A stretch of DNA of 64,000 bases from Candidatus Latescibacterota bacterium (GTDB taxonomy: Bacteria > Latescibacterota > UBA2968): assembly GCA_965204375.1 (NCBI GenBank), contig OZ241986.1, positions 4,896,001-4,960,000 of the forward strand, in the 5' to 3' direction. Below are positions 56,352-60,097 of the stretch, one piece after another. The stretch's first letter is position 1, and every line of letters starts with the position of its first letter. The position numbers were made by a program, and so were the translations under genes. The notes beneath the pieces are model-generated. The model ran no database searches, was not told the DNA's origin, and was given only the letters and a program-made list of their open reading frames with translations.

Positions 56352-56924
56352 ATGCGCATCATCGCTGGGGAATTTAAGGGCCGCCGCATCCCCTTTAACA
56401 ACAAAAAGCACGGCAATGCCCGCGTCACATCCGACTTTGTCAAAAAAGCCGTATTCTCTTCCCTTGGCGAAATCCTCCACGGCAAATATTTCCTCGACCT
56501 CTTCTCCTGCTCTGGTCAAATCGGCCTCGAAGCCTGTAGCCGCGGTGCGCATGTGGTTATCAATGAACCCGACCGCCGCTGCAACCGCTTCATCGCACAG
56601 CTCATAGACAATTGGCATCTCAACGACCGCATCCAACTCTATGCGCGTCCCGCACAAAGACTCTTGCCCCAACTCGCGCGGTCCCGTTCCATATTTGACA
56701 TCATCTACCTCGACCCTCCCTATCACCAACAATTAGACGGACAACCCATGTCCTGCGCGATACTCACCCGCCTCGCAACAATGCCTATCCTTGCGCCCAA
56801 TGCCCGCATTCTCGTCCAACACGCCTCTCGTACAACACTACCAAAATCCTTTCCCAACCTCATCCTCTCCCGAGAAAAAAAATACGGCGACACAATGCTG
56901 AGCACATATACCCTTACTTTCTAA
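56352..56924 (+). CDS. rsmD: 16S rRNA m2G966 methyltransferase family
   Basis: Motifs MRIIAGEFKGR, LDLFSCSG, EACSRGA, DPPY and KYGDT. Confidence 0.88.
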   Translation: MRIIAGEFKGRRIPFNNKKHGNARVTSDFVKKAVFSSLGEILHGKYFLDLFSCSGQIGLEACSRGAHVVINEPDRRCNRFIAQLIDNWHLNDRIQLYARPAQRLLPQLARSRSIFDIIYLDPPYHQQLDGQPMSCAILTRLATMPILAPNARILVQHASRTTLPKSFPNLILSREKKYGDTMLSTYTLTF

Positions 56925-56994
56925 CTTGCTATTCACTGCCAAAATCACTATGTTCTAAAAATTGCAAAAGCCATTATACCTGAAGGAGGAATCA

Positions 56995-57270
56995 ATGGAC
57001 AAACTCAGTTCCGCCGTCGATTTTAGACCGCGCAGCCGTCAGCTTTACATGGGCGACATGCCCTGGCTCCCGCGCATTACGGATAAAGCCCGCGCCAAAT
57101 TGCGAGGCTGCATCGGTGACTATGTCTATCCGTGACCCGCTGACAGAAAGTTCCTGGAGGAACTTGGGGTTGAAGCTGAAGAATTTACGAACATCGTCGC
57201 GTCCAGCCCGACCGATGCCGAAGTCATCGAAAAAGTAAAACCCATCTGGGACAAGTCGCATTCTGAGTAA
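56995..57270 (+). CDS. DUF5069-like small protein with in-frame TGA (probable selenocysteine), 91 aa; absent from the ORF track
   Basis: RBS AAGGAGG. Reads MDKLSSAVDFRPRSRQLYMGDMPWLPRITDKARAKLRGCIGDYVYP-TGA(57133)-PADRKFLEELGVEAEEFTNIVASSPTDAEVIEKVKPIWDKSHSE*, and a terminator follows. Confidence 0.8.
57136..57170 (+). other. Bacterial SECIS-like stem-loop
   Basis: AAGTTCC-TGGA-GGAACTT (57148-57165) starts 12 nt after the TGA and has G in the apical loop. A lower ccc/ggg stem is possible. Confidence 0.7.
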
Positions 57271-57274
57271 CAAC

Positions 57275-57308
57275 AAAAAAGCCGCCACATAATGTGGCGG
57301 CTTTTTTT
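57275..57308. terminator. Bidirectional intrinsic terminator
   Basis: aaaaaagccgccacat / atgtggcggctttttt. Confidence 0.9.
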
Positions 57309-57327: not shown

Positions 57328-59013
57328 TCAGGCGCGGAACAACTCGCCCATGCGCCTGCCTAAAAATCGCCCGGCCAAAAACAAACTCACAATCAACAAC
57401 ACCATACCAAAAACACCCATTGCACTGGCCAAATACGCGCCATCTGCAATGCGCCCCATAAGCGCGTAAATCGCTTTTGTGATGGGATAGTATTCGTCTT
57501 TGAGCGCCAAAATCAAACTATCGCTCACCTCGAGCATTGCAAACGCAAAACACAAAATACCGCCAGCCACCAGATTGGCTAAAATCAGCGGAAATGTAAT
57601 TTGAAAAAGCGTGCGCAACCGGGAAGCCCCTAAATTTTGAGCCGCCTCTTCCAGCGTCACACTCGTCTGCTGAAATCCCGCATACGCCGCGCGCACCATA
57701 TAGGGCAACCGCCGCACCGCATAGGCTATGACCAGCAGTGGCACGGGATAGTGCCGCGCATCCAAAAAAGTACCCGAATACCCCGCCAGATACCCAAAAG
57801 CCAGCACCAGACCGGGCAGAGCTAAGGGCAACATCGCCATCGCATCTAAAACGCCCTTATACGGGATGCGGGTGCGCGTCAACAAATAGGCAATGGCAAT
57901 ACCCAGAACAATATCCAGCGTCGTACTCAACACACTCAATATCAGACTCATCTCAATGCTGGACAGAGACATCGGATGCTCAAAAACCATCGTATAAAAT
58001 CGCCCGGTCGTCTCCTGGGGCAGCACAGCCATAAACCAGCGCTCGGCAATAGACGTCAAAAACACACTCAGATGCGGAATCAGAGCAATGCCCGTAAGCG
58101 ACAACATCGCGGCGTAAATCAACACAGTCATCCCGCGAGAAGCGGGGCGCGATCCCGAACTGATATACCCTCGCGCAATCATCTCATAGCGGCGATTGCC
58201 CAGCGTCGCCTTTGACAGATAAAAGAAAAAGACCGTCAACAGCAACACGAAAACAACGAGCGCGTAAGCCATCGGATTTTCGTTAATATCCTCAATAGAA
58301 TTGAAAATCTCGACCGCTACGACCTGGCGATAATTGAAAATAAGCGGCGTTCCCAAATCGGTAAACGCCCAGATAAAAACAATAATCGCCCCGGCAAAAT
58401 AGCCCGGCAACATCAGTGGAAATGTCACCGTGCGAAAAAGGCGAAACCCGCTACTGCCCATATTGCGCGCCGCCTCTTCCAGGCTCGGATCGACATTGGC
58501 AAGAGCAGCGGCCACATTGAGATACATAATGGGATAGAGATGCAGCACCTCTAAAATCACCACGCCCACAAAACCACCACCGCCAAACCAATCTACCGGC
58601 TGATCGATAAGTCCCAAATCCAGAAGCAGCAAATTGATAGAACCAAAACGCGCAAACATCTGCTTCATGCCAATCGCCCCTACAAACGGGGGCAAAACCA
58701 TCGGCACCAGAATCAAACCATTGAGAAATCCTTTGCCCGCAAAATTGTATCGCACCAGCAAAAACGCCAGAGGCAAGCTGAGCAACGTAGTCGCAATGGT
58801 CGTAATCATCCCCAGCCGAAAACTATTGAGAATGGCTTCCTGATAGACCGGACTCGTCACCATTAACTCGTAAAACGCAAACGTAAACCTGCCATCGACC
58901 ACCAGCGACTGCACAAAGGCATACCAAAGGGGATAAAACAAAAACAAGGCAAAAAAGCCGATCAACCCCACCAAAAAAATGAGCGTGGGCAAATTGAGAT
59001 CAAACCGCCTCAT
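57328..59013 (-). CDS. ABC transporter permease (FbpB/ThiP-type, duplicated TM domain)
   Basis: Two EAA loops (LEEAARNMG, LEEAAQNLG) and multiple TM helices. Confidence 0.92.
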   Translation of the reverse strand: MRRFDLNLPTLIFLVGLIGFFALFLFYPLWYAFVQSLVVDGRFTFAFYELMVTSPVYQEAILNSFRLGMITTIATTLLSLPLAFLLVRYNFAGKGFLNGLILVPMVLPPFVGAIGMKQMFARFGSINLLLLDLGLIDQPVDWFGGGGFVGVVILEVLHLYPIMYLNVAAALANVDPSLEEAARNMGSSGFRLFRTVTFPLMLPGYFAGAIIVFIWAFTDLGTPLIFNYRQVVAVEIFNSIEDINENPMAYALVVFVLLLTVFFFYLSKATLGNRRYEMIARGYISSGSRPASRGMTVLIYAAMLSLTGIALIPHLSVFLTSIAERWFMAVLPQETTGRFYTMVFEHPMSLSSIEMSLILSVLSTTLDIVLGIAIAYLLTRTRIPYKGVLDAMAMLPLALPGLVLAFGYLAGYSGTFLDARHYPVPLLVIAYAVRRLPYMVRAAYAGFQQTSVTLEEAAQNLGASRLRTLFQITFPLILANLVAGGILCFAFAMLEVSDSLILALKDEYYPITKAIYALMGRIADGAYLASAMGVFGMVLLIVSLFLAGRFLGRRMGELFRA

Positions 59014-60097
59014 CGCGGTCCTCCGATTCATCGCGCAACACAACCACCTGCTGCTTCGAAAACCCCAGTCGCACCTCATCACCGGGTTGTGCGTGCTGCA
59101 TAGTCGCGCCGTACTTAATCAGTTTGATCTGATCGCCGCTCGCCAATTCAACAAAAAATTGCTCAACTTCACCCAGATAAATCGCACGCCGCACGCGCCC
59201 AAAAATGACATTATCCGCCGTCATAGCTTCATCCGAAAGAAAGTCCATTGCCTCGGGCCGAATCGCGCACAACACCTGATCCCCCACCTGAACACCCTCA
59301 TATCCCGCGTGTCCGTGAATATCTCCCACATCTGTTGCAACGATCACCTCGGATCCCACAGATTTTATCTCCCCAGAAATCAAATTGATCTCGCCAATAA
59401 AATCCGCGACAAAGCGGGTGATCGGTTGCCTGTAAACATCCCGAGGCGTACCGATTTGCGCCACCTTGCCCATCTGCATAACCGCAATGCGCGCGCCCAT
59501 TGCCAGCGCTTCTTTTTGATCGTGTGTCACATAAATCATTGTAACACCCAAAGTGCGCTGCAAATCCTGTAACTGCTCGCGCATCTCCAACCGCAACCGC
59601 GCATCCAGATTGGAAAGTGGCTCATCCAGCAGCACAACACCCGGTTCTATGACCAGTGCCCGCGCCAGTGCCACGCGCTGTTGCTGCCCCCCCGAAAGCT
59701 GATTGGGCGACCGCTCGGCATAACCGCTCATCTGAACCATTTCCAGAGCGCGCCTCACTTTTTGGTCGCGTTCGTGCTGCGACATATTGCGCATGGTGAG
59801 GCCGTATTCCACATTTTTCCAGACCGTCATGTGAGGCCACAACGCATAATTCTGAAACACCATACCCGTATTGCGCTCGTGCGGAGGCACAGGCGTCACA
59901 TCGCGTTCATCAAAAATCACCCGACCACTCTCGGGCTGCTCAAAACCTGCCAAAATGCGCAACAACGTGGTTTTGCCACAACCAGAGGGACCCAGCAAAA
60001 AAAAGAACTCCCCTGCGTCAATTTCCAGATTGATGCGATCCAATGCCAGAACATTGTCAAAACGCTTGGTCACATTTTCCAGCCTGATTCCGAACAT
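59000..60097 (-). CDS. ABC transporter ATP-binding protein (FbpC/PotA-type)
   Basis: Motifs GPSGCGKTT, LSGGQQQR, LLDEP and THDQ, with a TOBE-like C-terminus. Confidence 0.95.
   Translation of the reverse strand: MFGIRLENVTKRFDNVLALDRINLEIDAGEFFFLLGPSGCGKTTLLRILAGFEQPESGRVIFDERDVTPVPPHERNTGMVFQNYALWPHMTVWKNVEYGLTMRNMSQHERDQKVRRALEMVQMSGYAERSPNQLSGGQQQRVALARALVIEPGVVLLDEPLSNLDARLRLEMREQLQDLQRTLGVTMIYVTHDQKEALAMGARIAVMQMGKVAQIGTPRDVYRQPITRFVADFIGEINLISGEIKSVGSEVIVATDVGDIHGHAGYEGVQVGDQVLCAIRPEAMDFLSDEAMTADNVIFGRVRRAIYLGEVEQFFVELASGDQIKLIKYGATMQHAQPGDEVRLGFSKQQVVVLRDESEDRDEAV

Follow-up and report, generated by a model that had tools for sequence, protein, structure and literature searches.

A DUF5069 gene with an in-frame UGA and a SECIS-type hairpin, a probable selenoprotein gene from Latescibacterota

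A gene for a small DUF5069 protein, interrupted at codon 47 by an in-frame UGA, is very probably a genuine selenocysteine (Sec)-decoded gene that uses the ordinary bacterial SelB/SECIS route, as indicated by sequence comparisons. It was found in a stretch of 64,000 nt from a Latescibacterota genome; this stretch is called the window below. DUF5069 is apparently a selenoprotein family unlisted so far. Novelty lies in the family, in its orphan fold and in the poorly known lineages that harbor it, not in the decoding mechanism.

Gene layout and the reading frame across the UGA

The features of the locus are as follows (positions in the window):
56352-56924, plus strand: upstream neighbor, RsmD-type methyltransferase (Pfam Cons_hypoth95, E 3.3e-40)
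56983-56989, plus strand: ribosome-binding site AAGGAGG, by direct reading; the ATG is 5 nt further on
56995-57272, plus strand: CDS of the putative 91-residue DUF5069 selenoprotein, translated with TGA as U, TAA stop included
57133-57135, plus strand: UGA codon 47, predicted Sec (motif YVYP-U-PAD), from the exchange of TGA and Cys among relatives
57148-57165, plus strand: SECIS-type hairpin AAGTTCC/GGAACTT with the loop TGGA at 57155-57158, starting 12 nt past the TGA
57150-57163, plus strand: conserved hairpin core GTTCCTGGAGGAAC, within the SECIS-type hairpin
57275-57307, no strand assigned: bidirectional intrinsic terminator (terminator scan; 15-pair stem with A and T runs on either side)

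The first-pass annotation had proposed a hidden selenoprotein candidate here, and its layout was reproduced by direct reading and translation. The ribosome-binding site and the ATG at 56995 are in place, the TGA at 57133-57135 is the sole in-frame stop, and 44 codons follow it until the TAA at 57270-57272. The perfect hairpin AAGTTCC-TGGA-GGAACTT, which had been placed 12 nt after the TGA with a G in the loop, is present, and the terminator directly after the gene corresponds to the 15-pair stem listed above. An AGGAG-type motif precedes the start in 29 of 30 related loci compared, the exception (L048) showing GGGGTGA.

The terminator is common to the selenoprotein gene and the permease gene of a convergent ABC transporter. 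The transporter genes occupy 57328-60097 on the minus strand and encode a permease of 584 residues with two BPD_transp_1 domains and an ATPase of 365 residues with a TOBE_2 domain. Several congeners have extra DNA between these genes and the selenoprotein gene. On the other side, an RsmD-type gene immediately precedes the selenoprotein gene in 24 of 30 related loci, in both families of the order, and is not a neighbor at the Poribacteria-titled loci checked (L126 and L112). There, the upstream gene encodes a UPF0182 protein (L126) or a pyridine-nucleotide disulfide reductase fused to glutaredoxin (L112), and PheA lies downstream in both. The neighborhood was considered as a clue to function and rejected, as RsmD is limited to the order of the window and no neighbor is conserved across phyla. 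The glutaredoxin-pyridine-nucleotide disulfide oxidoreductase fusion (L112:240-1475) is a candidate reductant partner, although L126, the other Poribacteria-titled locus scanned, does not show it.

Against Pfam, the read-through product scores 60.8 bits for DUF5069 (PF16798), at an E-value of 2e-16 and with a gathering cut-off of 27, which upholds the family assignment proposed in the first pass. The match extends over residues 12-83 with the TGA inside. It covers profile positions 4-75 of 133, and the read-through product is thus a short form of DUF5069. The family motif given in the first pass is close to the actual LPRITDKARA...GDYVYPUPAD. A scan of the read-through protein against NCBIfam matched no family. 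The 44 codons downstream of the TGA are conserved among relatives down to 48% identity; F64 is invariant, and T65 and D74 almost so, among the aligned database homologs.

Contigs from four metatranscriptomic libraries belonging to three studies span the gene across the TGA with 90-99% identity to the window, and they stem from relatives. Among the differences listed for the CDS, 14 of 15 are at third codon positions, seven before and seven after the TGA, and none falls at 57133-57135 or in the hairpin core; 39 other differences stand outside this list. Such libraries can contain DNA, and therefore the contigs show presence and coding constraint, not transcription. The Pfam span, the conserved residues and the third-position differences together show that coding constraint continues in the same frame past the UGA.

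If the TGA were a true stop, the locus would be a 46-residue gene or a decaying pseudogene, and its protein-like remainder would be untranslated. Gene calling with table 11 does end the CDS at 57135, and 11 of the best 150 representative proteins of the family are truncated likewise. This explanation is nearly negligible in probability: the Pfam match crosses the TGA, the downstream codons are conserved, third-position substitutions lie on both sides, and among the best 80 loci the codon is TGA in 61 and Cys in the rest, which is not a pseudogene pattern. The locus is most likely one gene, not two fragments.

Exchange of UGA and cysteine codons among relatives

The genome set searched consisted of 41 related genomes from eight genera in two families of one order. 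A full-length ortholog bearing exactly one TGA was found in 35 of them, and two congeners have an ortholog without a stop. In one genome the gene is split across contig ends, and three contain paralogs only. Codon 47 is TGC (Cys) in both stop-free congeners. In each of these the stem carries a substitution (AAG>AAA in one congener, GAG>GAA in the second), and both keep selA and selB, indicating a gene-specific switch from Sec to Cys. Loss of the Sec trait was considered as the cause of the TGC congeners and rejected, given the retained selA and selB and the presence of selA in all five of the distant Cys-form genomes tested as well.

A wider scan, with one genome per species, gave 236 relatives, and the best 80 of these were used for counting. 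Codon 47 is TGA in 61 and TGC or TGT in 19. By record title, the 61 TGA loci comprise 36 from Latescibacterota, six from Gemmatimonadota, 18 from Poribacteria and one uncultured, and these phylum counts need care because record titles disagree with the taxonomy from the genome search. For example, L091, titled Gemmatimonadota, and G031 are one and the same locus, and the genome search put G031 in the order of the window itself. In the protein tree, the Poribacteria-titled sequences split off with support of 99/94. The tree implies five changes between Sec and Cys, at least three of which are forced by well-supported branches. The retention of the TGA by relatives, a check named beforehand, was thus borne out both among the 41 related genomes and among the best 80 loci. 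Sequencing error, which had been named as a possible refutation, is excluded because the TGA recurs across independent assemblies.

In the orthologs at L038, L051 and L053, the read-through translation contains a second TGA at the position where the orthologs of other loci end. From this position, it is most likely the terminal stop, so that each of the three would be one gene using TGA both for Sec and as the stop.

The first pass had also held that the TGA stands in place of a family Cys, and homologs agree. C is found at the Sec column in 23 of 28 aligned database matches, and the crystallized homolog PDB 3omd has Cys there. Searching 1.84 billion representatives with a profile produced 772 matches at E <= 1e-3, and the best 150 of these 772 representative proteins yielded 172 domain stretches. 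The Sec column in the 172 stretches is occupied by C in 110, S in 29, W in one and other residues in 19; two have a gap, and 11 end at ...Y[IV]YP. The Ser in 29 stretches shows that the fold does not require the residue and that some members of the family do without it. Ser is frequent in the two- and three-domain DUF5069 forms.

The 11 proteins that end at ...Y[IV]YP are P0032, P0049, P0052, P0054, P0057, P0060, P0069, P0072, P0074, P0087 and P0100, and their ends indicate gene calls cut at the TGA. C-terminal fragments are in public collections as well (P0043 and P0064). Standard gene calling breaks this gene up or cuts it short, and public sets therefore hold ...YVYP fragments together with a few Trp misreadings. 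A protein cluster search with the natural Cys homolog P0002 returned DUF5069 clusters only, all with scores <0.9.

The conserved hairpin and the selenocysteine machinery

In the description of bSECISearch, the bacterial stem-loop lies immediately 3' of the UGA and has a G in its apical loop. The hairpin of the DUF5069 gene agrees with this description: it has the apical G, and its UGGA loop, which starts 19 nt after the UGA, lies at the usual distance. The base rate of such structures is low: 274 of the 213,213 TGA triplets in the genome (0.13%) precede a comparable hairpin, defined as a perfect stem of at least 7 bp with a loop of 3-6 nt that starts 16-23 nt past the TGA and has a G in its first two bases.

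Every one of the 61 TGA loci contains the identical 12 nt TTCCTGGAGGAA, always starting 18 nt from the T of the TGA, which answers positively whether the TGA and the hairpin are conserved together in relatives. This 12-nt core is identical in lineages titled Latescibacterota and Poribacteria. Among the 19 Cys loci, TTCCTGGAGGAA is present in just one, a recent convert.

The hairpin encodes the peptide K-F-L-E-E-L, and part of its conservation could therefore be at the protein level. It might even be a by-product of this conserved peptide, any Sec insertion then depending on another element; the stem and loop lie wholly within conserved codons, and the fold energy of the 61-nt stretch, calculated for the single sequence, is unremarkable (z = -0.39). 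Thus, the case rests on conservation, not on stability. The codon usage speaks strongly against a by-product. Codons 53-56 are TTC CTG GAG GAA, each in 62 of 62 Sec forms (the 61 TGA loci and the window), whereas the other invariant residues with degenerate codons, G20, P23, L25, R27, I28, D30, K31, A32, A34, P46, D50 and F64, use two to six codons in the same sequences. The 19 Cys forms lose both the nucleotide pattern and the two glutamates: codon 53 is TTC in nine and TTT in eight, codon 54 is CTG in 11, CTC in five, CTT in two and TTG in one, and E55 is kept in six and E56 in eight. A constraint on RNA and peptide that is present only where the codon is TGA fits a SECIS element and does not fit a purely protein-level cause.

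The pairing itself shows the same. In the alignment of 61 sequences, the four inner stem pairs are invariant, the fifth is GC in 60 and CG in one, and the sixth is AU in 42, UA in eight and GU in five, being unpaired in the remaining six. The outermost pair is unpaired in 37 of the 61, so that 5-6 pairs are universal. Compensatory changes are thus seen at two stem pairs, the fifth and the sixth. RNAalifold recovered the same 6-bp helix with the UGGA loop and no further conserved helix within 60 nt downstream of the TGA. With these observations, a by-product hairpin is very unlikely, and the hairpin is best regarded as a putative SECIS element.

The host genome (6.34 Mb in a single contig) has all four components for which the first-pass annotation had called: selB (389 bits), the adjacent selA (580 bits), selD (369 bits) and selC, the tRNA-Sec gene (70 bits), all exceeding the curated cut-offs. 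selA and selB lie together at C1:2586472-2589722, outside the window. The selD gene, also outside the window at G000:C1:5302781-5303902 (loci L014 and L017), is itself a selenoprotein gene, with an in-frame TGA at GGU-ASK; its hairpin begins 13 nt past the TGA and consists of a 7-bp stem with the loop GGT. The tRNA-Sec gene is located ~100 nt downstream of selD. Another in-frame TGA, at CAAT-U-HAP, is found in a gene for a formate-dehydrogenase-like molybdopterin oxidoreductase on the minus strand at G000:C1:3303087-3303839 (L139), where the apical loop GGTCT is 18 nt after the TGA. With 136.6 bits against the TIGR01553 cut-off of 814, this FdhA-like gene is not a typical FdhA. In other lineages, selA was detected in all five TGA-form genomes tested.

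The UGA could instead be read through without Sec, by a near-cognate or suppressor tRNA (Trp, Cys or Gly) or by a lineage-wide change of the code. W is indeed recorded at the Sec column in five of the 28 closest database proteins (P0003-P0006 and P0012), apart from the one representative stretch mentioned above. All five then continue with FLEEL, the hairpin peptide typical of the TGA forms, and we read these W calls as TGA probably rendered as Trp by some pipeline. Homologs have Cys rather than Trp at this position. In the genome, TGA serves as a regular stop that ends 829 of 2057 long ORFs (>=400 codons), and the second TGA at L038, L051 and L053 would serve as a terminal stop. The full Sec machinery is also present. 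Read-through of this kind is accordingly judged highly improbable.

Decoding with Sec remains the preferred reading, and the physical insertion of Sec at codon 47 is what the comparisons suggest. The mRNA would be translated through UGA codon 47 via the standard bacterial Sec route. The hairpin beginning 12 nt past the UGA, with its UGGA loop 19 nt past it, would recruit SelB and Sec-tRNA(Sec) to the ribosome; Sec would be inserted, and translation would then run for 44 codons to the TAA. The single Sec would sit in the conserved loop Y-x-Y-P-U-P-x-D, at a helix N-cap.

Fold, putative function and comparison with known systems

The product is probably a 91-residue, mostly helical, cytoplasmic protein. 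The AlphaFold model (pLDDT 79) consists of a short beta-hairpin and four helices, with U47 as the last residue before the helix 48-57. Sequence (phmmer, E 1.2e-11) and fold searches (Foldseek, E 2.6e-4, TM 0.79 over 81 columns) both gave PDB 3omd as its only PDB relative, and all other Foldseek matches in PDB have E >2. Regarding the thioredoxin-like fold with UxxC/CxxU, neither part is found: the model is all-helical apart from the short beta-hairpin, the motif UxxC or CxxU is absent, and no Cys lies within three residues of U47.

A Cys seven residues upstream of U47 (C39) had been suggested in the first pass as a resolving partner. This idea did not hold, since C39 is present in only 16 of the 62 Sec forms and 25 of the 62 have no other Cys in residues 7-88. 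C39 is thus not a conserved resolving partner. C71 is found in 21 of the 62.

Pairs of Sec and Cys at one position mark reactive residues. On this ground, the chance is about even that U47, placed at a helix N-cap, acts as a solitary reactive selenol in a redox or nucleophilic role. The selenol would most likely be regenerated by an external thiol. That U47 serves as a ligand for a metal or chalcogen is less probable. More tentatively, DUF5069 might represent a new reactive-chalcogen protein class on an orphan helical fold, in which a one-selenol enzyme or carrier works without a partner Cys, possibly in sulfur, selenium or metal handling. Such handling is hinted at by fusions to Cupin_2 and DUF2249. 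Among ten longer representatives scanned, Cupin_2 is the fusion partner in three, and DUF2249, a methyltransferase, an AI-2E transporter and a piece of an amino-acid kinase are found once each; no partner domain was detected in three of the ten.

The genome of the window also contains paralogs, at G000:C1:718367-719254 and 994295-994789 (loci L055, L056 and L058). One is a tandem two-domain protein of 295 residues with the Cys in the second domain only, and the other is a DUF5069 protein of 164 residues without the Cys. Three-domain DUF5069 forms of about 435-480 residues are found in relatives from the sister family.

Sec is used almost only at reactive sites, and the finding therefore offers, for DUF5069 and PDB 3omd, a first starting point for functional work, namely a residue to mutate and a loop to probe. 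The contrast between Sec forms and Cys forms is an unusually clean natural experiment on the nucleotides that SECIS needs. If the tentative assignment to a reactive-chalcogen class is true, it applies to a family of no fewer than 772 representative clusters, whose one crystal structure is unexplained.

New selenoprotein families turn up regularly. Table 1 in a review of May 2026 (PMC13188914) gives domain identifiers for 119 selenoprotein families or subfamilies of prokaryotes, including predicted families of unknown function such as DUF1858, DUF523, DUF3179, DUF1573 and GOS_B/GOS_C. Across the whole of this table, no entry carries the identifier PF16798. No mention of DUF5069 or PF16798 was found in about 8.4 million full texts, and the supplements of large surveys could list DUF5069. 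The retrieved passages of the BSepDB paper (PMC13326102) contain neither DUF nor Latescibacteria nor Poribacteria. Searches for 3OMD returned an unrelated abbreviation only, and those for a presumed InterPro accession returned nothing. By title and abstract, the papers listed on Latescibacter and selenocysteine contain nothing on DUF5069, and a search combining selenoprotein, sponge and Poribacteria gave no result. The gene would thus add a family beyond the inventory of 119, from little-studied and mostly uncultured hosts titled Latescibacterota, Gemmatimonadota and Poribacteria.

Compared with the function-unknown families in PMC13188914, the DUF5069 selenoprotein is alike in its small size, its one Sec, the Sec/Cys pairing, the hairpin just 3' of the UGA and the presence of SelA, SelB, SelC and SelD. 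It differs in that PF16798 is unlisted, NCBIfam gives no match, UxxC and CxxU are absent, and the DUF5069 model is all-helical, not thioredoxin-like.

PDB 3omd, an uncharacterized protein from Leptospirillum rubarum, shares the DUF5069 family and the fold, and its Y-x-Y-x-C-P-x-D aligns with Y-V-Y-P-U-P-A-D. It has Cys instead of Sec and is 145 residues long with a C-terminal extension, whereas the 91-residue short form has no such extension. The longer and multi-domain DUF5069 proteins, including the paralogs in the same genome, have the same Pfam domain, and many of these are without the Cys.

In the classical bacterial SECIS, of the Escherichia coli fdhF type, the hairpin lies inside the coding sequence soon after the UGA. 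Within the genome of the window, the putative SECIS elements of the selD and FdhA-like genes resemble that of the DUF5069 gene in being intragenic hairpins with a GG-containing apical loop 18-20 nt after the UGA, and in selD and the DUF5069 gene the hairpin starts 12-13 nt after the UGA. Unlike the classical type, the DUF5069 stem is very short, with its 5-6 universal pairs, and the putative SelB site is the tetraloop UGGA, not GGUC or GGU.
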